From Candidatus Methylomirabilis limnetica (GTDB taxonomy: Bacteria; Methylomirabilota; Methylomirabilia; Methylomirabilales; Methylomirabilaceae), in NCBI RefSeq assembly GCF_003044035.1, contig NZ_NVQC01000020.1, positions 30,001 to 62,000 on the forward strand: a stretch of DNA of 32,000 nucleotides. The letters are read 5' to 3'. Position 1 is the stretch's first letter; every line of letters starts with the position of its first letter. The position numbers and the translations under genes were made by a program. This document shows positions 1,680 through 31,214 of the stretch, in pieces. The notes under the pieces were generated by a model. That model did not search any database and was not told where the DNA came from. It was given only the letters and a program-made list of their open reading frames with translations.

Positions 1680-2692
1680 CTAATCTCGGCCCCTCTATTG
1701 GAGGCCTTTGCTAAGAAGACGATCGCTTCAATTTTCCCTTGCATAGCCTGCATGAGACGATGCTTCAGGTGATCGGCTTGGTCCTGATCCATAGTCAGCC
1801 CATAGACCGCCGGTCCCCAGGAACTCTGCCCTACCCCTAACGCCCCAGCCCTTCGCATCGCCCTGGCCAGTTCCGCCCCCTGCGTGGTGGCAAAGGTTCC
1901 GCCCTGGACGGATCTGAACCAGTTTCCGACAATGCGCTGAATCCTGGTAAGCGCCTCACCGAATACAACGGGGTCGCGCTCGAGCACCGCCGGGAGCATC
2001 TGCATGAGCAGGATGCGGCTGAGCCGTCCCGCGGCGGTGGCAGGACGTAGGGCAAGCCGGCCAAACGCATCGACCTCTGCAACTCCGGCAAGCCCACGGT
2101 CGACATGGGGAATTGCCACGACAAAGGTCCACTCCTCTGGAAAGGGGTAGCGGACGATCGTGGGCGGAACGAGATTCCGGGTTCGTGTTTCGGTTTGCCT
2201 TAACCCACTCGAAACTCGAAACTCGAAACTCGAAACTGTTTCGCCTGCGGTGTTCATTCGCCGTCCGGCATCCACGACGAAACCGCCCTGCTCGAAGGCG
2301 GCGATCCCAATCCCCGACCGAGCCCCTCTGTCCATTACGGCTGCCAACTCCCGAACACTGGCGTCGATGGAGAAGAGACGAGCCAGCGCTGAAGCAACGC
2401 TGAGCGCAAGCTGCGTCCCGGAGCCCAAACCTGCATGGGCAGGGATTATTGCCTTGACGGAGATGTGAACCCCTTGCTGGAGATTGTAGTGGCGGAGAAA
2501 ACGGCGTGCCAACGTGAGGACTCGACCCCGCTCTCGCCCTACAGCCGAGAGGCGATCCGCCGGTGACGCCTCGAGAACGACCGAGGGCTCGCCGATCGCC
2601 AGCCCGATGCTCCCAAACATCCGACCCAATGAGCCGTCCAGGTCGATGAAGCCGAAGTGAAGTCTGGCAGGGGCCTTGACCGTGACGCCCAT
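1676..2692 (-). CDS. mptG: beta-ribofuranosylaminobenzene 5'-phosphate (beta-RFAP) synthase, H4MPT biosynthesis (GHMP-kinase fold); carries an in-frame repeat insertion
   Basis: Track ORF of 338 aa: MGVTVKAPARLHFGFIDLDGSLGRMFGSIGLAI...PAHAGLGSGTQLAL...GIGIAAFEQGGFVVDAG, the typical beta-RFAP synthase signature. The ATG overlaps the upstream gene's stop (TAATG). Confidence 0.8.
   Translation of the reverse strand: MGVTVKAPARLHFGFIDLDGSLGRMFGSIGLAIGEPSVVLEASPADRLSAVGRERGRVLTLARRFLRHYNLQQGVHISVKAIIPAHAGLGSGTQLALSVASALARLFSIDASVRELAAVMDRGARSGIGIAAFEQGGFVVDAGRRMNTAGETVSSFEFRVSSGLRQTETRTRNLVPPTIVRYPFPEEWTFVVAIPHVDRGLAGVAEVDAFGRLALRPATAAGRLSRILLMQMLPAVLERDPVVFGEALTRIQRIVGNWFRSVQGGTFATTQGAELARAMRRAGALGVGQSSWGPAVYGLTMDQDQADHLKHRLMQAMQGKIEAIVFLAKASNRGAEIS
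2166..2243 (-). repeat. Heptamer-armed palindromic element, copy E1 (in frame inside mptG)
   Basis: Minus strand reads CAGTTTCG AGTTTCG AGTTTCG AGTTTCG AGT-GGGTTAAGG-CAAACCGAAACACGAACCCGGAATCTCG. It encodes ...VSSFEFRVSSGLRQTETRTRNLV.... By hand alignment the arms are about 18/26 complementary. Confidence 0.75.
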
Positions 2693-3240
2693 TACTGCTG
2701 CCGCTCGACGTAATCCTGAAGGTATCGCATCGCCTGCGCTTCCTGTTCTCCACCGGTCTTCTGCACAATCTCAGTCAGACGGCGATACTCCTGAAGGATG
2801 TGCGCCACGCCAAGGAACCGGACTCGGGTGGCGAGGATTGTTGCCTCAATAATTGCGTTCTTCGCGCGGCTGAACCCGATGAATTCGCGCAGGATCCCCT
2901 TTTTGAGGATCTTGCAAAGGAAGGTCGCGCGCTCTGATGCTGTGTTGGTGTGCATGACTGAACACTCGTAATACGAGCAGGCGTCTGTCAGGACAATGCC
3001 GGTGACCAGCTCGGCCGGAAAGGTAGGAAAATGAGGTCTGGAGATGGCGCTTTCGGCGAACAGACGGATCGAGTCGGTCAGATTAACGACAGCGGCCCCG
3101 GTTGCGATAATATTTTGGCAGGTGGCTGAATCTTTATAGGGTCGGATGAGGAGTTCCCCTTCCCCGATAGTGATCCCCATCGGCGCAAAATTCGCCCCTC
3201 CAGCCTCATCTAACGTTGTTACAATACTTTCGATGATCAT
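2692..3240 (-). CDS. DUF447-family protein (FMN-binding split-barrel-like; H4MPT-pathway associated)
   Basis: Track ORF of 182 aa, MIIESIVTTLDEAGGANFAPMGI..., which resembles the DUF447 proteins found in bacterial and archaeal methanopterin gene clusters. It lies in an operon between the DHPS-like gene and mptG. Confidence 0.6.
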   Translation of the reverse strand: MIIESIVTTLDEAGGANFAPMGITIGEGELLIRPYKDSATCQNIIATGAAVVNLTDSIRLFAESAISRPHFPTFPAELVTGIVLTDACSYYECSVMHTNTASERATFLCKILKKGILREFIGFSRAKNAIIEATILATRVRFLGVAHILQEYRRLTEIVQKTGGEQEAQAMRYLQDYVERQQ

Positions 3241-3288: not shown

Positions 3289-4659
3289 CTATTGACGCGA
3301 GGGGAGGCCGTGTTCAAGATACCCCCATTTGAGATCTTCTTCCTGGATGTATTTTTTCCCAAGCAGCATCGCGAGCCTCGCCTTCATCAACTCACGACCC
3401 AGGTAAAAGGCGTGGCCAATCGGTTCCGGGCCAAGGTACGCCTTAACCTGGTCGAAGATCCGGTGGATGTCGGTCTCCTTGATGAAGAGATCGCGGTTGA
3501 ACGCGTAGATGGCCGCTCGATCGGCAAATATTCGGAAGTTCGGGTCTGTCACCATCCGTTGCATCTGACGCAGCTCCGCCTCGGATGGACAATCGACCCT
3601 CCGGTCTTTGATTGTGAGCAGACCGTCGTCGATGTCTTTTGGCAGCACCCCCCGCCGTCTGGCGTAATACATCAGCCGCCGGGCCAGGTCCAGCTCGCGT
3701 ACCGACCCTCTGGCCCACGAGGCCACCTCGGTGGTAAGTACATATCGCACCTGTAGCTCCGACATCACCCCTGTGAGGAGCGCATTGATCCCCGTGCTGT
3801 CGGCATCGGTTAGCTCTGTGACGTTTCCCACCCCCATAAGGATCTCCGCCTGCGGGAAGCGGTGTCTCGCCTCAACGTAGCGGGCGAGCGACTCGGCAAA
3901 ACCGAAGGTGATCGGCGCGAGGATCGGGTCGATGAGATATCGTGTGCAGCCCAGGCGCTCTACGGCCTCGATATTCGCCGCAAGGGAATCCAGCCCCTTG
4001 CCGAAATCGGGGATGATCACCGGGGTACACGCCAGATCCGGGGCCAGATGCAGATTCTGTGAGTTCAAGCTCAGGAGAAACTCCGCGCCGGCCTTGTCGG
4101 CGGCGATGATCTCCTGCGTATTGAAGGTATCGATGCTGACGCGAAACCCCTCGGACCGAAGCACCGAGACGATCTCGCCGACATTGCCGGCCGGTCGCGC
4201 CGGGATGCAGCCAACGTCGATGACGTCCGCGCCACAGGCTACGTAGTAGCGAGCCTTGCTGAGGACCTCGCCTATCGGCAGCGTGGGGGCGTCGTTGATT
4301 TCGGCCAGGATGGTCAGGTCGTGGCCGCCATACCCCTCCCGTTTCTTCTCTACGCCAAAGTAGTAGGGGATATCACGCAGATCTTTCGGCCCCTTTTCGA
4401 CCTTCACGCCCAGCGACTGTTCTAGCTCTTGAGGTTCCACGCGGCAGAGTCCGGGGATCATCAGCAGATCACAGCATGGCGACCGAAGAGAATGGATGAT
4501 GAGGGGCGTAGTCATCAGGGCGGCCACGCTGATCTTGAGGACGGCCACCTCGTATTCGAAATCGGCCTGCATGCCTGCCAGCGTCTCTTTCAGGGCGCGC
4601 TCTGCCAGCTTGCCGGTAACGAAGAGAATCTTCATGCGCCCCCCGCATTCCGTCCTCAC
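3289..4659 (-). CDS. Dihydropteroate-synthase-like pterin-binding protein (methanopterin biosynthesis)
   Basis: Track ORF of 456 aa. An N-terminal domain is followed by a DHPS-like barrel (GADVIDVGC..., IDTFN..., NVTELTDADS). A GTG at 4659 overlaps the SDR stop (GTGA). The alternative ATG at 4635 gives MKILFVTGKLAE. Confidence 0.7.
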   Translation of the reverse strand: MRTECGGRMKILFVTGKLAERALKETLAGMQADFEYEVAVLKISVAALMTTPLIIHSLRSPCCDLLMIPGLCRVEPQELEQSLGVKVEKGPKDLRDIPYYFGVEKKREGYGGHDLTILAEINDAPTLPIGEVLSKARYYVACGADVIDVGCIPARPAGNVGEIVSVLRSEGFRVSIDTFNTQEIIAADKAGAEFLLSLNSQNLHLAPDLACTPVIIPDFGKGLDSLAANIEAVERLGCTRYLIDPILAPITFGFAESLARYVEARHRFPQAEILMGVGNVTELTDADSTGINALLTGVMSELQVRYVLTTEVASWARGSVRELDLARRLMYYARRRGVLPKDIDDGLLTIKDRRVDCPSEAELRQMQRMVTDPNFRIFADRAAIYAFNRDLFIKETDIHRIFDQVKAYLGPEPIGHAFYLGRELMKARLAMLLGKKYIQEEDLKWGYLEHGLPSRQ

Positions 4660-5601: not shown

Positions 5602-5678
5602 GGACGGTTAGCTCAGATGGTTAGAGCGCCGCCTTCACACGGCGGAGGTCACTGGTTCGATCCCAGTACCGTCCACCA
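5602..5678 (+). tRNA. tRNA-Val (anticodon CAC), CCA encoded
   Basis: Hand-folded cloverleaf: acceptor GGACGGT/ACCGTCC, D arm GCTC-AGATGGTTA-GAGC, anticodon arm CCGCC-TTCACAC-GGCGG, variable AGGTC, T arm ACTGG-TTCGATC-CCAGT, discriminator A, then CCA. Confidence 0.9.
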
Positions 5679-5760: not shown

Positions 5761-5784
5761 CATTCAATCATACGGGTTACCCCT

Positions 5785-5848
5785 GTAGGGGCGCAATTCA
5801 TTGCGCCCTCCGGGGTAAGAGGGCATGATGAATCACGCCCCTACGATC
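5785..5848 (+). repeat. REP-like hairpin unit, solo copy upstream of the RAYT-like gene
   Basis: GTAGGGGCGCAATTCATTGCGCCCT-CCGGGGTAAGA-GGGCATGATGAATCACGCCCCTACGATC. The inner 9-bp palindrome is GGGCGCAAT/ATTGCGCCC. The outer pair is GTAGGGGCG/CGCCCCTAC. Near-identical blocks lie inside the CDS at 6139-6225. Confidence 0.7.
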
Positions 5849-6138
5849 CTTAATCCATCGTTTTAGAGGGGCATTGCATGGCCTTCAATCCGGACGTTCA
5901 TCATCGCCGTTCGATCCGATTGAAGGACTACGATTATGCCCAACATGGTGCGTACTTCATCACCATCTGCACACGGAACCGAGAACGTCTATTGGGGTCC
6001 GTACAGGATGGGCAAATAGTCTTAAATGATGTTGGAAATATTGTCGAATCGGTATGGCATGGGCTACCCAATCGCTTTCCATCCGTTGGATTGGATGCGT
6101 ATGTCATCATGCCCAATCATGTCCATGGCATCATCACC

Positions 6139-6263
6139 GTAGGGGCGCAATTGATTGCGCCCTGCCCGGTCGGTCGCAACGATAAGGCCGGTCAAGAGGG
6201 CATGATGAATCACGCCCCTACGATCGTGGGCAACCCGGCGGGCATGATGAATCACGCCCCTAC
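6139..6263 (+). repeat. REP-like hairpin unit embedded in frame in the transposase CDS, with its 3' half-site tandemly duplicated
   Basis: GTAGGGGCGCAATTGATTGCGCCCT...GGGCATGATGAATCACGCCCCTACGATC runs 6139-6225. The 24-nt GGGCATGATGAATCACGCCCCTAC at 6198-6221 recurs exactly at 6240-6263. The region encodes VGAQLIAP...GMMNHAPTIVGNPAGMMNHAPT. Confidence 0.7.
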
Positions 6264-6471
6264 ATTGGGCAATATTGTTCGCACATTCAAGGCTGCATCA
6301 ACCAATGTGATTCGGAAAAGTCGAGCTCCCGCCTTTGCCCGGCAACGCAACTACCACGAGTACATCATCCGGGATGAGCGATCGCTGAACGGTATTCGTC
6401 GGTACATCCAGGTCAATCCGCTGCTTTGGTTATATGACAGAGAAAATCCTCAAGCAGTATGCGTACCCAAC

Positions 6472-6565
6472 AAAGAGGTCAACCGGGTACTGGCGAAGCA
6501 CTACAACTTCACGAACGAGGACCTGGATTTCATCATTATACGATGTCAAGTACCGGTTGACATAA
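6472..6565 (+). pseudogene. Frameshifted C-terminal remnant of a DNA methyltransferase or restriction-modification-type gene, read through by the transposase ORF
   Basis: The in-frame reading is KEVNRVLAKHYNFTNEDLDFII. Skipping one base (6538), which equals a 2-nt deletion, gives YDVKYRLT followed by TAA at 6563-6565. The restored LAKHYxFTxEDLDFII(N)YDVKYR matches my recollection of the HYGFTxEELDFIINYDIKYRMG tail of large N6-adenine methyltransferases. This was not checked by any search. Confidence 0.45.
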
Positions 6566-6585
6566 CAGATGGGTTCAGTAGGCTC
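6557..6585 (+). promoter_or_regulatory. Promoter-like bipartite motif, copy B (TTGACAT-N9-GTTCAGTAGGCTC), upstream of bioB
   Basis: TTGACA (6557-6562), a 16-nt spacer, then TAGGCT (6579-6584), about 33 nt before the bioB ATG. By hand alignment 23 of 30 positions match copy A, and both flanking blocks are perfect. Confidence 0.4.
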
Positions 6586-6617
6586 GATTTTGTTCAAGAT
6601 GCTGATCTTTCTTATGA

Positions 6618-7685
6618 ATGAGGCGTGAGGGGGAAGATGTGAAAGGCGTGCAATCGGGCGGTGTGACGGAGCGGGTGCGGCAGATCGGCGAACGGGTGCT
6701 TGCCGGAGATACGGTGACGTTCGAGGAGGCCGTCGAGCTCTTCGAGCGCTCCGATTACGACGTTCATGAACTGTTCCACGTGGCCAATCGTCTCCGGCTT
6801 AATCAGTTCGGGAACCGGATCCATCTCTGCGGCATTATCAACGCCAAGAGCGGCCTCTGTCTGGAGGACTGTAGCTTTTGTAGCCAGTCCGCTCACCACG
6901 CTACCCAGATCCCGAGGTATGGTGTAGTATCCCCAGACGAGATGGTCCAAGCTGCCAGAAAGGTCAGGGAGCACGGCGCCTCCGCGCTTGGGGTCGTCAC
7001 CGCGGATCGCGGCTACACCGCCGCGTCAGCGGATTTTCGTCAGCTTGTCGAGGGGATCCAGGCTATTGCGCAGGACGGCCTGGTAGAGGGTCACGCCTCC
7101 CTCGGAATCATGGGTGACGAGGAGTTTCGACAGCTCAAGGTGGCAGGTCTCACCACGTTCAATCACAACTTGGAGACCGGCCGCTCCTTCTTTCCGAAGG
7201 TCTGTACGACCCACACCTATGACGAGCGTGTGAGCACCGTCAAGGCCGCCAAGGCTGCCGGGATCAGGGTCTGTAGCGGCGGGGTCATCGGGATGGGGGA
7301 GAAGCCGGTGCATCGCGCCGAGCTCGCCTTCGCCCTCAAGGAGCTGGACGTAGACGAGGTCCCCCTGAACTTCCTGATCTCTGTGGAAGGGACCCGATTG
7401 GAGAAGGCCACCCCGCTCTCACCGCTCGAAATGCTGAAGGTGATCGCACTCTTCCGCTGGATCCTCCCGACCAAGAACATCTTTATCTGCGCCGGCAGAG
7501 CGCATCTGGGCGAACTGCAATCGATGATCTTTTTCGCCGGCGCGAGCGGAATGATGGTCGGCGACTTCCTCACGACCAAGAACCGAAGCGTGAGCGACGA
7601 TCTCAAGATGCTTCATGGTTTGGGGCTTGAGTTCGGCGAATCCTTGCTCGCCCTGGAACGCCAGGCCGCGACTGCCGCCATCTAA
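6618..7685 (+). CDS. bioB: Biotin synthase (radical SAM)
   Basis: Track ORF of 355 aa with the CxxxCxxC cluster CLEDCSFCSQS and otherwise typical BioB sequence. The start could instead be the in-frame GTG at 6639, just after GAGGGGGAAG. Confidence 0.85.
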   Translation: MRREGEDVKGVQSGGVTERVRQIGERVLAGDTVTFEEAVELFERSDYDVHELFHVANRLRLNQFGNRIHLCGIINAKSGLCLEDCSFCSQSAHHATQIPRYGVVSPDEMVQAARKVREHGASALGVVTADRGYTAASADFRQLVEGIQAIAQDGLVEGHASLGIMGDEEFRQLKVAGLTTFNHNLETGRSFFPKVCTTHTYDERVSTVKAAKAAGIRVCSGGVIGMGEKPVHRAELAFALKELDVDEVPLNFLISVEGTRLEKATPLSPLEMLKVIALFRWILPTKNIFICAGRAHLGELQSMIFFAGASGMMVGDFLTTKNRSVSDDLKMLHGLGLEFGESLLALERQAATAAI

Positions 7686-7716
7686 CTCGCGCGATCCCCA
7701 TGCGCATGAACGTCTG

Positions 7717-7812
7717 ACCCCCTCACCTTTGTCCTCTCCACCCGGTGAGGGGAGAGGAGTTTTTCTTGTTGCCCCTCGCCCCTTTGGGGGAGAGGGTGCG
7801 GGTGAGGGGGTT
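7717..7812. repeat. C/G-rich composite palindromic element in the bioB-bioA spacer (terminator-like)
   Basis: CCCCCTCACC (7717-7726) is complementary to GGTGAGGGG (7744-7752) and to GGTGAGGGGG (7801-7810). CCTCTCC (7733-7739) is complementary to GGAGAGG (7751-7757 and 7788-7794). T-runs follow both G-rich halves. Confidence 0.55.
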
Positions 7813-7821
7813 TTCGAATCC

Positions 7822-22213: not shown

Positions 22214-22334
22214 GTGTCGAGTTTCGAGTTCCGAGTTTCGTGTTGAAGAAGATCTTACGTGCAAGGGAACCTTCGACTCAGCACCTGGAACTGGAGAGCC
22301 AAACCCGAAACCCGAAACTCGCAACTCGAAACGG
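22214..22334 (+). repeat. Heptamer-armed palindromic element, copy E3 (longest, MITE-like), filling the lpxA-lpxI spacer
   Basis: Left arm CGAGTTTCGAGTTCCGAGTTTCGTGTTG; 54-nt centre; right arm CAAACCCGAAACCCGAAACTCGCAACTCGAAACGG. By hand alignment the arms match at 23/28 positions as an inverted repeat. Confidence 0.8.
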
Positions 22335-22342
22335 TAAAGTCG

Positions 22343-27392: not shown

Positions 27393-28513
27393 AAGGCATA
27401 GAGGCGCTCTCGGCCTGGACGCAACACTGCATGGCGGAGGCTTCGGAGCAATGGACCGCTCAAGCCTGGCTGACGTGCTTGCGTCCGGTCTCGTATGCGT
27501 ATGGGGCAGCAATCTCGCTTCGGGCTGCGCTCTTTGCGTCTGGTCTCGCCAGGACTCGCCGACTTCCAGTCCCGGTGCTGAGCGTTGGAAACGTAAGTGC
27601 TGGCGGAAGCGGGAAGACCCCGTTCGTTGAGATGTTGGCCGCTCGGCTGCGCGAGCAAGGCCAGCGGGTGGTCATCATTTCACGGGGGTATCGAGGTGGT
27701 TTGAAGAAGCCAACAATTATCAGCGACGGCAGAGATCTACGATGTGAACCGCCGGTCGCCGCTGACGAGGCCTATATGCTGGCCAGGCACCTGCCGGGTG
27801 TCGCTGTCTTGACGGGAGCCGACCGATACCGAGTTGGTGAGGTTGCCCTTGAGCAGGTGGATTGCGGTGTCATTATTCTGGATGATGGGTTTCAACATCT
27901 CAGGCTCTACCGCGATCTGGATATCGTCCTGGTTGACGCGGGCAACCCTCTTGGCTACGGTCGGCTGTTGCCCTCGGGGTTGTTGCGGGAGCCTCCGGAG
28001 GCGCTCGGACGGGCCGACATCGTGGTCGTCACCCACGCTGACGCCGGACGGGACCTGGACCCCGCCATGCAGGCGATCCGACGGTATGCGCCGACCACCC
28101 CAATCGCCCTGGCTGTTCATCGGCCTATTGGCCTCATCGATGTCAACGGCGGAGAACGCCTGGGCCTTGAACGTCTCACTGGTCAGCGGTTGTTGGCAGC
28201 CTCTGGCATCGCCAATCCGAGCCGGTTTGAGGCCACCCTTGTTCAGCTTGGCGCCTTCGTTGTGGCTCGTCGTGTCTTCCCCGATCACCACCGCTATTCT
28301 ACCGCCGACCTGGAGATCATCAACGAAGCGGCCAGGAAGAGCGGCGCCTCCATGGTAGTCACCACAGAAAAGGATATGGTAAAATTGACGTGCTTGGACC
28401 TTGCAAAGGTGGAGGCACCGTTCTACGCCCTGTCGATCTCACTCGAATTGGTGGAAGGGGTGGAGGTGTTAGACGCCATGGTGAGCCGCATGGTGAAACT
28501 GAGCGCCTCATGA
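27389..28513 (+). CDS. lpxK: Tetraacyldisaccharide 4'-kinase
   Basis: P-loop VGNVSAGGSGKTP, then ISRGY and DDGFQH. GTGA overlap with waaA. Confidence 0.9.
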   Translation: MKGIEALSAWTQHCMAEASEQWTAQAWLTCLRPVSYAYGAAISLRAALFASGLARTRRLPVPVLSVGNVSAGGSGKTPFVEMLAARLREQGQRVVIISRGYRGGLKKPTIISDGRDLRCEPPVAADEAYMLARHLPGVAVLTGADRYRVGEVALEQVDCGVIILDDGFQHLRLYRDLDIVLVDAGNPLGYGRLLPSGLLREPPEALGRADIVVVTHADAGRDLDPAMQAIRRYAPTTPIALAVHRPIGLIDVNGGERLGLERLTGQRLLAASGIANPSRFEATLVQLGAFVVARRVFPDHHRYSTADLEIINEAARKSGASMVVTTEKDMVKLTCLDLAKVEAPFYALSISLELVEGVEVLDAMVSRMVKLSAS

Positions 28514-29493
28514 AGCCCAAGACCATGGGCGGTATTGCCGCCTATCTCGAATACCTCCTCGCGATGGGACTCGCGAAGGGATTGTTGTACCTGCCATCTT
28601 CAGTGGCCTACTCTGTAGGTGAGGGATTGGCTGGGCTGCTCTACCGCTTTGATCACAAGCATCGCCTTGTTGCTCATGAGAACCTGCATCGGGCCTTTCA
28701 TGGTGAGCTTTCCTCTATGGAGATTGATGAACTTACGCGCTTATGCTTTATCAATCTCGGCCGAACCGTTGTCGAGACCTGTCGGAGTCTCAAGATCGAT
28801 CGAGAGAACTTCCGGCAAGTTATCGGGGTCGAAGGGTATGAGCACATCCAGCAGGCCAAGCGCAGAGGGAAAGGAATCATCTACGTCACCGCGCACTTGG
28901 GTTCGTGGGAACTGCTGCCGCTTGCGGTAGGCCTTATGGGTGAGCCGTTGTCTGCTGTGACGCGCCCCCTGGATAATCCATACCTCGATAGGGCAATCAA
29001 CCGGTTGCGGACCGCCTGGGGAACGAGGGTATTAGCCAAGAAACAGGTGATGCCGGTGCTGGTGCGGGCGCTGCTTCGTGGGGAGAGCGTCGCGATCCTC
29101 ATGGATCAAAACACCACCTGGAAAGAGGGGGTCTTTGTCGATTTCTTTGGTATGCAGGCCTGCACGACCCTTGCGCCAGCTCTCCTGGCCCTCAGAACCG
29201 ACGCATCGGTTCTTCCTGCCGCCATCATACGGTGCGGGCGGGACCGGCACACTGTTCTTGTGGAGAAAGAGATCCCCTTGATCAGGACCGGGCGCCTGAA
29301 GGCAGACGTCATTGCCAACACCGCCTCTTTCACCAAGGCCATCGAAGCGTTCGTTCGGAGGGAGCCGGCCCAGTGGCTCTGGCTCCATCGCAGATGGAAA
29401 ACACAACCGCGTGCCACGTGCCAGGTTCCGAACCTGGAATCCGGAACCCGATACGTGGAATCTGGAACTGCGAGGCAGAACCCGACACAATGA
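28510..29493 (+). CDS. lpxL: Lipid A biosynthesis late (lauroyl/myristoyl-type) acyltransferase, LpxL/HtrB family; C-terminal tail encoded by a repeat element
   Basis: The ATG at 28510 (ATGA overlap with lpxK) gives MKPKTMGGIAAYLEY.... It has the HX4E motif TAHLGSWELL, then ...PAQWLWLHRRWK, followed by about 30 extra residues. Confidence 0.8.
   Translation: MKPKTMGGIAAYLEYLLAMGLAKGLLYLPSSVAYSVGEGLAGLLYRFDHKHRLVAHENLHRAFHGELSSMEIDELTRLCFINLGRTVVETCRSLKIDRENFRQVIGVEGYEHIQQAKRRGKGIIYVTAHLGSWELLPLAVGLMGEPLSAVTRPLDNPYLDRAINRLRTAWGTRVLAKKQVMPVLVRALLRGESVAILMDQNTTWKEGVFVDFFGMQACTTLAPALLALRTDASVLPAAIIRCGRDRHTVLVEKEIPLIRTGRLKADVIANTASFTKAIEAFVRREPAQWLWLHRRWKTQPRATCQVPNLESGTRYVESGTARQNPTQ
29411..29488 (+). 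repeat. Degenerate heptamer-periodic element, copy E5, at the lpxL / heptosyltransferase junction
   Basis: Period-7 string ...ACCTGGA ATCCGGA ACCCGAT ACGTGGA ATCTGGA ACTGCGA.... Inverted repeat GGTTCCG (29424-29430) / CGGAACC (29442-29448). Positions 29462-29488 match 22285-22311 of copy E3 at 20/27 positions, ungapped and aligned by hand. Confidence 0.55.
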
Positions 29494-31214
29494 GTGTGGC
29501 GACGCTTCGCATCAGGCGTACCTTCGAACCAGACCAGATTCGATCTATCCTGGTCGTAAGCCCTAATTGGTTGGGCGACGCGGTCCTCGCTCTGCCTGCG
29601 CTCGCCAACCTCCGCCGCTCCTTTCCTGAAGCAAGAATCTCACTTCTCGTGCGCCCGTGGCTTAGCCAGTTGTTTCGATCCTTACCGTTCATCGACGAGC
29701 TCGTTGAGTTGCCAAGCAGAGGTGAGCTGATGTGGGCGGCGACAGCACTACGGCAACGAGACTTTGAATTGGCCCTGCTCTTACCGAACAGCTTCCGAAC
29801 AGCTCTGATCGTCCGGCTGGCAGGAATTCCGCACCGGGTCGGGTATGTGGCCGATGGACGGGGCCCTCTTTTGACGGTTGGGGTGTGCCCCTCACCTTCG
29901 AGTTTCGAGTTTCGAGTTTCGAGTTACGCGTCACGAGATTCTTTGAACCCGAAACCCGAAATCCGAAACCCGAAACTTCATCATCAGGCAGACTCCTACC
30001 TTGGCCTGCTCCGATCGCTTAAGTGGGATGCGTGGTCGCGTCCGACAGCTTCTCTGCTTCCGCCGGGAAGCGACGCGGAAGCAGAGAAGCTGCTCACCGA
30101 CTTGGGTCTCCCCTCTCACACCATGTTAATTGGCATGACCCCCGGTGCTGCCTATGGGACGGCAAAGCGTTGGCCGACTGACCGGTTTGCCGCAGCAGCC
30201 GATCTTTTGATTGATCGCCTTGGAGCCACCGTCCTGTTATTCGGTTCACCGAGGGAAGCCTCGTTAACAAGCGCCATCCGCGAGCGGATGCGCGGAGCTG
30301 CTATCGACTTCGGTGGCCGGACGACTCTTCCCGAATTGTCCGGCCTGCTCAGTCGATGCGCGCTGCTCCTCACGAACGATACGGGGACGATGCATCTCGC
30401 CTCCGCGTTAGGGGTGCCGTGCGTCGCCCTGTTCGGCCCGACGGATCCTCTCCGAACAGGGCCTCTCGGCTCTGGACATCGGGTTCTTCACGATCCGCCG
30501 GCCTGCAGTCCGTGTCGCTACCGCGACTGCCCGATCGACCATCGATGCATGCAGGCGCTGGACGTGGAGAGGGTTGTGGCTGCCGTGGAGGCCCTTCTCA
30601 CACGATCAACCTCCACTACCGAGGAGAACGTCCGGATGCGGCCCGCGGTCTTTCTGGACCGGGACGGTACCATCAACGAGGAGATCGGGCCGATTCAACA
30701 CCCAGACTTGATGAGACCGATTCCCGGGGCGGCAGAAGCGTTGAAACGCCTTGGCGAGGAAGGGTATCTGCGGATCGTGGTCACCAATCAGGCGCGAGTG
30801 GCCCGAGGGGACGCAACGGAAGAGCTGGTTGAAGCGACCCATCGGCGACTCCTGCAGTTGCTCCGCGAGGCGGGAGGCGAGATGGATGCCTTCTACTACT
30901 GCCCTCATCATCCTCGGGAAGGGCTCTTCCCGTACAGACGGGCCTGCCTGTGTCGTAAGCCTGCCCCCGGGTTGATTCAGCAGGCGGCCTTTGAGCAGCA
31001 GGTAGACATGGAGCGATCGTACGTCGTTGGGGATAAGGTGAGCGATATGCTGCTGGCAGATCGGCTAGGCCTCCCCTCGGTGCTGGTACTGACCGGCTAT
31101 GGGCGCGAGTCGTTGGATCGCCTTCATGCGGCGGGAGGTCCAATGCCCGCTCATACGGCTAGAGATCTGCTGGGCGCCACCGAGTGGATTGTGCAACGGA
31201 GCGGCCGAGGATGA
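29490..31214 (+). CDS. Fusion protein: GT9 ADP-heptose:LPS heptosyltransferase (WaaF-like) plus D,D-heptose 1,7-bisphosphate phosphatase (GmhB)
   Basis: The ATG at 29490 (ATGA overlap with lpxL) gives MSVATLRIRR..IRSILVVSPNWLGDAVLALPAL (GT9 N-terminus)...NDTGTMHLASALGVP. From 30636 the sequence is MRPAVFLDRDGTINEE...VVTNQ...CPHHP...CLCRKP...VGDKVSDM, a GmhB HAD phosphatase with a Zn-Cys motif. Confidence 0.8.
   Translation: MSVATLRIRRTFEPDQIRSILVVSPNWLGDAVLALPALANLRRSFPEARISLLVRPWLSQLFRSLPFIDELVELPSRGELMWAATALRQRDFELALLLPNSFRTALIVRLAGIPHRVGYVADGRGPLLTVGVCPSPSSFEFRVSSYASRDSLNPKPEIRNPKLHHQADSYLGLLRSLKWDAWSRPTASLLPPGSDAEAEKLLTDLGLPSHTMLIGMTPGAAYGTAKRWPTDRFAAAADLLIDRLGATVLLFGSPREASLTSAIRERMRGAAIDFGGRTTLPELSGLLSRCALLLTNDTGTMHLASALGVPCVALFGPTDPLRTGPLGSGHRVLHDPPACSPCRYRDCPIDHRCMQALDVERVVAAVEALLTRSTSTTEENVRMRPAVFLDRDGTINEEIGPIQHPDLMRPIPGAAEALKRLGEEGYLRIVVTNQARVARGDATEELVEATHRRLLQLLREAGGEMDAFYYCPHHPREGLFPYRRACLCRKPAPGLIQQAAFEQQVDMERSYVVGDKVSDMLLADRLGLPSVLVLTGYGRESLDRLHAAGGPMPAHTARDLLGATEWIVQRSGRG
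29897..29978 (+). repeat. Heptamer-armed palindromic element, copy E4 (in frame inside the heptosyltransferase domain)
   Basis: TTCG AGTTTCG AGTTTCG AGTTTCG AGTTACG CGTCACG AGATTCT TTGAACC CGAAACC CGAAATC CGAAACC CGAAACT T. It encodes SSFEFRVSSYASRDSLNPKPEIRNPKL. Confidence 0.8.

Follow-up and report, generated by a model that had tools for sequence, protein, structure and literature searches.

The stretch analysed here, referred to as the window, is 32,000 nt of the genome of Candidatus Methylomirabilis limnetica. On its minus strand lies an mptG-type gene for beta-ribofuranosylaminobenzene 5'-phosphate (beta-RFAP) synthase (1676-2692), an unbroken open reading frame (ORF) of 338 aa which hosts a palindrome of heptamer repeats, named copy A (2166-2243). 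The gene was identified by family and domain matches. The protein possesses GHMP kinase N and C domains and matched TIGR00144 over its full length (residues 4-337, 210.7 bits, cut-off 113.5), while its score with the equivalog model NF040726 was 236.5 bits, below the cut-off of 328. The closest database proteins are orthologues with 99-60% identity, named Candidatus Methylomirabilis or NC10. The neighbouring DUF447 gene (2692-3240) and dihydropteroate-synthase-like gene (3289-4659) place mptG in a tetrahydromethanopterin (H4MPT) biosynthesis cluster.

The plus strand at 2160-2250 reads gtgggcGGAACGAGATTCCGGGTTCGTGTTTCGGTTTGCCTTAACCCACTCGAAACTCGAAACTCGAAACTCGAAACTGTTTCGcctgcg. Tandem Repeats Finder (TRF) detected (ACTCGAA)x4.4 at 2207-2237 with a period of 7 and 100% matches, which corresponds to (AGTTTCG)x4 on the gene strand. 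Three parts were distinguished in copy A, all given on the minus strand. The perfect arm (2207-2243) is the (AGTTTCG)x4 array and encodes (E)TVSSFEFRVSS; the CGAAAC-A ahead of it and the first unit together make a small palindrome. The spacer (2198-2206) is GGGTTAAGG and encodes part of GLR. The degenerate complementary arm (2166-2197) is composed of CAAACCG AAACACG AACCCGG AATCTCG (GGAACGAGATTCCGGGTTCGTGTTTCGGTTTG). The whole copy is translated within the unbroken MptG ORF as ...GGFVVDAGRRMNTAGETVSSFEFRVSSGLRQTETRTRNLVPPTIVRYPFPEEW..., and the protein segment spanning it is ...ETVSSFEFRVSSGLR.... A heptamer element in frame at this position had been proposed by the first-pass annotation, and the TRF result, the intact ORF and the TIGR00144 match bear it out.

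The residues invariant in the family are kept in the alignment of the window protein. Outside the loop, dN/dS was 0.15-0.29 between the window and eight orthologues and 0.15-0.24 against the close relatives bearing an insert. Inside the loop it was 0.32, 0.96 and 0.73 in comparison with loci L211, L210 and L209, respectively (handles with L denote compared loci). Judged from these substitution rates, the extra residues appear to evolve almost neutrally, while the rest of mptG appears to be under purifying selection and the enzyme to remain functional. The first-pass annotation had considered a pseudogene; the intact ORF, the kept invariant residues and the dN/dS of 0.15-0.24 outside the loop speak against it. 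The insert was also found in several independent assemblies (ENA, JGI and NCBI; P0001 and others).

An AlphaFold2 model of the window MptG, built from an alignment of 31 sequences, showed a mean predicted local distance difference test score (pLDDT) of 81.7. Residues 147-176, between the strands 138-141 and 179-182, have pLDDT below 50. The best Foldseek matches of the model were ForT and GHMP kinases, with a GHMP fold closest to ForT. ForT is also the sole solved relative from the sequence search and has a linker of similar length at the same position. The insert is thus predicted to lie in a disordered and structurally permissive surface linker.

Heptamer palindromes in the window and in other phyla

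Double heptamers, counted with at most one mismatch, occurred 11 times in the window and 0 times in 100 shuffles of it. All the matches were confined to three loci, 2166-2243, 22214-22335 and 29895-29980. Copy B (22214-22335) is an intergenic palindrome between lpxA and lpxI, composed of (TCGAGTT)x4, a spacer of 64 nt and (AAACYCG)x4.6. Copy C (29895-29980, plus strand) is a palindrome in frame in a heptosyltransferase II/GmhB fusion gene (29490-31214). It is composed of (TCGAGTT)x4.1, a spacer of about 20 nt and (AACCCGA)x4.4, and encodes PSSFEFRVSSYASRDSLNPKPEIRNPKL. Copy D (29410-29470, plus strand) is a degenerate heptamer palindrome, (CGTGCCA)x2 GGTTCCG / AACCTGG AATCCGG AACCCGA TACGTGG AATCTGG, which forms the C-terminal tail of a lipid A acyltransferase ORF (28390-29493). 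The orthologue of copy D in L207 (L207:1610-1642) carries one extra CACGTGC unit and an extra segment of 14 nt, so the unit number varies within this coding tail. Three of the four copies are translated (A, C and the degenerate D) and B is intergenic; among the clear copies the fraction is two of three, in a small sample.

Copies A, B and C read, 5' to 3' on either strand, (AGTTTCG)n, spacer, (CGAAACY)n, with about four units per arm (4.0-4.6 in TRF; 3.4-4.6 in the clearest Methylomirabilis arrays). Their spacers are unrelated to each other (9-16 nt in A, 64 nt in B, about 20 nt in C) and only the heptamer arrays are in common; a conserved element body is therefore not shared. Positions 2207-2234 show 100% complementarity to 29897-29924 (28 nt). 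Both proteins contain the nonapeptide SSFEFRVSS, as the first-pass annotation had noticed, because the shared repeat DNA is read in the same orientation and frame. The attribution of this peptide to a shared DNA insertion is upheld by the 28-nt identity and by a 24-aa gap in the heptosyltransferase orthologues.

Tandem periods were surveyed with a single detection rule at lags 4-12 in 149 kb, comprising the window and 117 kb of other Methylomirabilis loci. Lag 7 was the sole tandem period, with 5 arrays in the window and 8 in the 117 kb, while all other lags gave 0. The window holds 3-4 copies and the related loci carry more arrays.

Folding of the copies was compared with that of shuffled sequences. 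The mRNA strand of copy A folds no better than shuffles (z -0.1), while its antisense RNA reaches z -4.0 through G-U pairs. Copy B gave z -2.7 as DNA and -2.6 as RNA. For copy C the DNA z was -2.7, and the RNA formed a hairpin of -32 kcal/mol (z -4.1). An Rfam scan of the entire window returned one tRNA and no match at the repeat copies. Strand-specific RNA selection is not claimed; three copies were judged too few, and the copies in other phyla lack a consistent arm asymmetry. In all six frames the AGTTTCG unit is free of stop codons. This property was rejected as a signal of selection, about half of random heptamers being estimated to be stop-free too.

The unit was also searched outside the lineage as exact (AGTTTCG)3, i.e. 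at least three perfect units, using one genome per species. At least 120 loci were found across many phyla. The matches listed include Acidobacteriota (many Pyrinomonadaceae), Planctomycetota, Desulfobacterota, Verrucomicrobiota, Bacteroidota and Chloroflexota, as well as Vibrio, Colwellia and Psychromonas. Many of the listed matches adjoin arrays of other heptamers. In L086, L095, L102, L112, L118 and others, different arrays abut, e.g. (AGTTTTG)n(AGTTTCG)3(AGTCTCT)n. Such abutting arrays suggest that heptamer tracts in Acidobacteriota, Planctomycetota and other phyla are composite. Among the matches listed, a CGAAACT-like partner was situated downstream (convergent) in 24 of 124 arrays and upstream (divergent) in 2, a 24:2 polarity which is not predicted from hairpin potential alone. 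In-frame AGTTTCG arrays were present in genes for MoeA, an M24 methionine-aminopeptidase-like protein, a GT9 heptosyltransferase, MnmA, a GT4 glycosyltransferase and an amidohydrolase, whose domains Pfam confirmed (L107, L056, L119, L106, L092 and L036). No sign of phage carriage was seen, with 8 matches among 2.9 million viral contigs. Literature string searches found no prior description of this repeat sequence or of heptamers in Methylomirabilis.

Filled and empty sites and the evolution of the mptG loop

An alignment of 80 MptG proteins was made. In every deeper Methylomirabilota clade a linker of exactly 15 aa, e.g. QRVGTPDRPCNPDSP, joins the block GGF(I/V)(I/V)D(A/G)G to the block PP..(I/V)R. 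More distant homologues have 6-13 aa. The short linker described in the first-pass annotation is thus confirmed. Linker length varies (10-45 aa) solely in the Methylomirabilis-like clade, whose members share at least 69% identity with the window. The window linker is 32 aa, a net gain of 17 aa or 51 nt over the 15-aa ancestor. The DNA of an empty allele, L208, is GCCACCGAC-TCTACCCGGAGCCGGGATCTC, and its host sequence ACCCGGAGCCGGGATCTC can be aligned with the distal ~18 nt of copy A (gene strand, ACACGAACCCGGAATCTC). The 78 nt are therefore the footprint of the palindrome and not the size of the insertion. Of the earlier claim of a 78-nt, 26-codon insertion, the repeat footprint at 2166-2243 stands, while the insertion itself is smaller; likewise, the gap expected in an orthologue alignment is present in MptG, with a size of 17 aa and not 24-26 aa. 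Taken as a whole, the insertion interpretation is supported and was essentially right.

The heptosyltransferase protein is 574 aa in the window and in one relative of 95% identity, while the other orthologues are 550 aa, three of them at 93-94% identity. The insert forms a clean 24-aa gap in the alignment of the remaining orthologues. At the DNA level, the filled alleles (window and L206) have 88 nt in place of 16 nt (GGGCGGGACGGTGCTG) in the empty alleles (L205 and L207). No target-site duplication was found in this comparison of filled and empty DNA. Copy C is a young palindrome. The mptG insert appears to be old, as it is common to lineages at dS of about 0.7, and to have been repeatedly remodelled.

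Orthologous DNA showed several states of the mptG loop. As left arm, the window has GTTTCGA x4, L210 GTTTCGG x4, L211 GTTTCGG with one variant unit and L209 GTTCCGA x4. The last three have the same total length as the window and a conserved spacer; the spacer and proximal right arm GTGGGTT[AG]AAGCAAACCGAAAC are kept in all three, and the window has the conserved spacer with a degenerate right arm. L127 has a degenerate left arm and a perfect right arm, (CGAAACT)x4. L003 has the layout of L127, again with a degenerate left arm, and all its right-arm units are changed to CCAAA(C/T)C. Candidatus Methylomirabilis oxyfera (L005) has no left arm and (GGTGGAG)x4 in the same loop (L005:10436-10474), encoding AVQGGGWRVEGV. 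In this reference M. oxyfera MptG the linker is 14 aa in total, an apparently insert-free allele which is nevertheless repeat-derived. L001, L126, L133 and L141 also have no left arm and carry a 27-nt hairpin, GATCCCCGA...TCGGGGAT, at the same point. Relatives known as proteins only imply AGTGTCG and AGCGTCG units. In L146, a metagenome contig of 63.5 kb ends inside an mptG array of (AGCGTCG)n (L146:6437-6458).

A similar pattern was observed in citG. Three lineages have arrays with different units at an orthologous site of this gene, on its start (5' end) or just upstream of it: TAGGGGA x4 in L003 (L003:17907-17948), GGGTGTG in L005 (L005:18457-18487) and CTCGCAC in L130 (L130:2730-2762). From these comparisons, the array part appears to evolve in concert on a shared scaffold, being uniform within a lineage and different between lineages.

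On a neighbour-joining tree of the MptG proteins, made without support values and with the loop masked, the 15-aa alleles are scattered among filled ones. The mptG site may have seen either repeated remodelling or loss of an ancestral type 1, or its own re-targeting or exchange. A recombination tract around the loop was sought by sliding-window identity and rejected, since no donor-like flank appeared and the flanks stay closest to L126.

Interpretation and alternative explanations

The preferred reading, held with a probability of about 0.7, is that copy A is a dispersed heptamer-repeat palindrome with convergent arms, similar to the short tandemly repeated repetitive (STRR) sequences and tolerated in frame in the disordered loop of MptG. 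It would be neither a miniature inverted-repeat transposable element (MITE) nor a repetitive extragenic palindrome (REP). The repeat may have entered the DNA for the disordered surface linker in the ancestor of the Methylomirabilis clade and been kept since. Its tolerance would come from the permissive linker, the stop-free unit and selection against lengths which are not multiples of three. The array probably acts like a microsatellite, in which slippage and/or conversion between dispersed arrays would homogenise the units. New copies, such as that in the heptosyltransferase, may arise without target-site duplication and replace a few host bases. They seem likelier to spread through template switching during replication, or through conversion by an array already present, than through cut-and-paste transposition. 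A function at the protein or RNA level is not indicated.

Several points weigh against this reading. In its mptG flanks the window most resembles L126 (96-98% identity, dS 0.24), a locus with the 27-nt hairpin, while the insert type of the window is instead common to L210 and L211 at dS of about 0.7. The history is therefore not one of simple descent and involves replacement, recombination or repeated targeting. The orthologous type-1 inserts with DNA all keep four units, although slippage alone should alter the copy number. Independent local slippage can hardly explain that AGTTTCG recurs in many phyla and at three loci here, and a trans-acting factor in the spread is possible. The route proposed for origin and spread is conjectural, and mRNA and protein are presumed to keep the insert.

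In a bolder explanation, the palindromes may be self-propagating heptamer arrays found across phyla. Their formation and upkeep would depend on a unit-templating activity, polarity-specific and so far unrecognised, in the form of a trans-acting enzyme or of a specialised pathway of repair or replication. It would repeatedly re-target fragile, hairpin-prone sites such as the mptG linker and homogenise arrays genome-wide. If true, this would explain the same unit in distant phyla, the 24:2 convergent bias and the uniform, lineage-specific four-unit arrays at orthologous sites; it is considered doubtful. Alternatively, each array may be local and involve no insertion from elsewhere, heptamer-like host sequence having undergone replication slippage and fold-back copying. 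In the ancestral linker DNA (L208), ACCCGGA GCCGGGA is indeed near-tandem and in part palindromic, copy A has a distal right arm of host origin, and the arrays at orthologous sites in mptG and citG have different units. Passages of PMC4692102 and PMC4679880 which cite Mrazek 2007 also describe heptamers as over-represented among bacterial simple sequence repeats (SSRs). Against these stand the 28 identical nt and the convergent layout which copies A and C share in unrelated hosts, the empty heptosyltransferase site (GGGCGGGACGGTGCTG) with no AGTTTCG-like seed, and the recurrence of the identical unit in many phyla. A purely local origin is unlikely. A non-autonomous mobile element of the classical kind, either a MITE or a REP or bacterial interspersed mosaic element (BIME) moved by a REP-associated tyrosine transposase (RAYT) or an IS200-type transposase, might have transposed into mptG and the heptosyltransferase gene, which would account for dispersed and palindromic copies. 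A RAYT homologue is present at 5878-6621 (NF047646, E 2.5e-14, below the cut-off), and a missing target-site duplication fits HUH single-strand transposition. But the RAYT-like gene has its own, different GTAG-headed REPs (GTAGGGGCGCAATT...), and the heptamer copies lack a GTAG or CGTC head and have neither conserved ends nor a body beyond the arrays in common. The replacement of 16 nt by 88 nt without duplication and the concerted change of units at orthologous sites, which is microsatellite behaviour, also argue against such an element, making it unlikely.

A function of the insert, as a phase-variation switch, as a hairpin with a regulatory role in mRNA or antisense RNA or as a flexible MptG loop of adaptive value, might be suspected from the unit length, which as in contingency loci is not a multiple of three. 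Retention over dS of about 0.7, hypervariability of the loop between strains and the strong folding of copy A antisense and copy C sense RNA (z about -4) point in the same direction. But the test for a phase-variable contingency locus revealed no difference in unit number, the type-1 orthologues with DNA all having four units, and no frame-shifted allele was found among the full-length MptG alleles, all of which are in frame. With a loop dN/dS near neutral, a copy A mRNA-strand fold no better than shuffles, no Rfam match and the same arrays in unrelated genes and intergenic DNA, a functional role is very unlikely. Least credible is an assembly artefact or a decaying gene. Assemblies do break at such arrays, as the L146 contig ending inside (AGCGTCG)n illustrates, but recovery of the insert in independent assemblies from ENA, JGI and NCBI and the intact ORF under purifying selection leave next to no room for it.

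Relation to known repeats and other repeats of the window

Heptamer repeats, convergent pairs and in-frame palindromic insertions are already known. Xanthomonas genomes possess about 180 heptameric repeat sites each (Rehm et al. 2015, PMC4692102). In Xanthomonas (GGGAATC) and Nostoc (GGGGA(C/T)T), the heptamers form convergent pairs with a preference for four units, which was explained by G-quadruplex formation (PMC4692102). The present arrays resemble these and the cyanobacterial STRR in their dispersed tandem 7-nt units, about four per array, their frequent convergent pairs and the lack of a known mobilising enzyme. They differ in that AGTTTCG is not G-rich, so the G-quadruplex rationale is inapplicable, and in their host, Methylomirabilota. 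Moreover, the Xanthomonas and Nostoc repeats were reported to be mainly intergenic and under-represented within coding DNA, whereas most copies here are translated in frame. Sets of TAACTGA are scattered across phyla in Beggiatoaceae, Cyanobacteria and Bacteroidetes with no evident transfer mechanism (MacGregor 2015, PMC4679880). An earlier finding cited in a passage of that paper is the over-representation of heptamers among long bacterial SSRs. Both TAACTGA and AGTTTCG are a specific heptamer in short tandem sets in phylogenetically scattered bacteria. Unlike the AGTTTCG arrays, nearly all TAACTGA sets are direct repeats in intergenic DNA, placed just upstream of start codons; their unit has stop codons, and that study found a single inverted pair.

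Rickettsia palindromic elements are in-frame palindromes in conserved genes, adding surface peptides while the function is kept; they form families of 100-150 nt with a consensus. The in-frame insertion in conserved ORFs and the absence from orthologues are shared with the present copies. Unlike those elements with their full-length consensus, only the heptamer arrays are shared here, the spacer is not conserved and the concerted evolution is microsatellite-like. REP/BIME and MITE sequences are similar as short, dispersed, imperfect palindromes. The present copies differ from them by the heptamer periodicity and have no GTAG/CGTC head, no terminal inverted repeats around a conserved core and no target-site duplication. 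What is new is the lineage, a unit which is not G-rich with the same layout, in-frame residence in conserved enzymes across phyla and a resolved series of unit turnover at an orthologous site.

Heptamer repeats represent a long-noted, unexplained excess in bacterial genomes, and the mptG locus offers a tractable natural series. One orthologous site in an essential single-domain enzyme is found in empty, short-hairpin and several four-unit states across close Methylomirabilis lineages. The series shows that repeats can persist in coding DNA, that they evolve in concert and that the four-unit convergent layout occurs without G-quadruplex capacity. Junk-like repeats can thus reside inside essential genes, which does not amount to a new biological system. 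In practice, such arrays break metagenome assemblies, inflate the apparent divergence of loops and create spurious peptide identities between unrelated proteins.

The window also contains REPs of another kind. Those at 5784-5848 and 6138-6267 begin with GTAGGGGCG and form GTAG-headed palindromes, GTAGGGGCGCAATT[CG]ATTGCGCCC / AGGGCATGATGAATCACGCCCCTAC. They are situated upstream of and inside the RAYT-like ORF (5878-6621, plus strand), which matched NF047646 with 53 bits (E 2.5e-14, below the cut-off of 80) and no Pfam family. Translation of the internal copies is in frame and gives VGAQLIAPC... and, two times, GMMNHAPT. A link of this REP/RAYT locus with the heptamer copies was considered and rejected, as the REPs are a separate GTAG-headed family; this system and the heptamer copies have no defining feature in common. 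A tRNA gene (5602-5675; Rfam RF00005, 68.6 bits) lies just upstream of the locus. Another imperfect palindrome, CCCCCTCACC...GGTGAGGGG / GGGGGAGAGGGTGCGGGTGAGGGGG, is intergenic at 7700-7815 between a biotin-synthase-like and an aminotransferase gene. Its GTGAGGG-type units resemble M. oxyfera arrays at L005:19369-19453.

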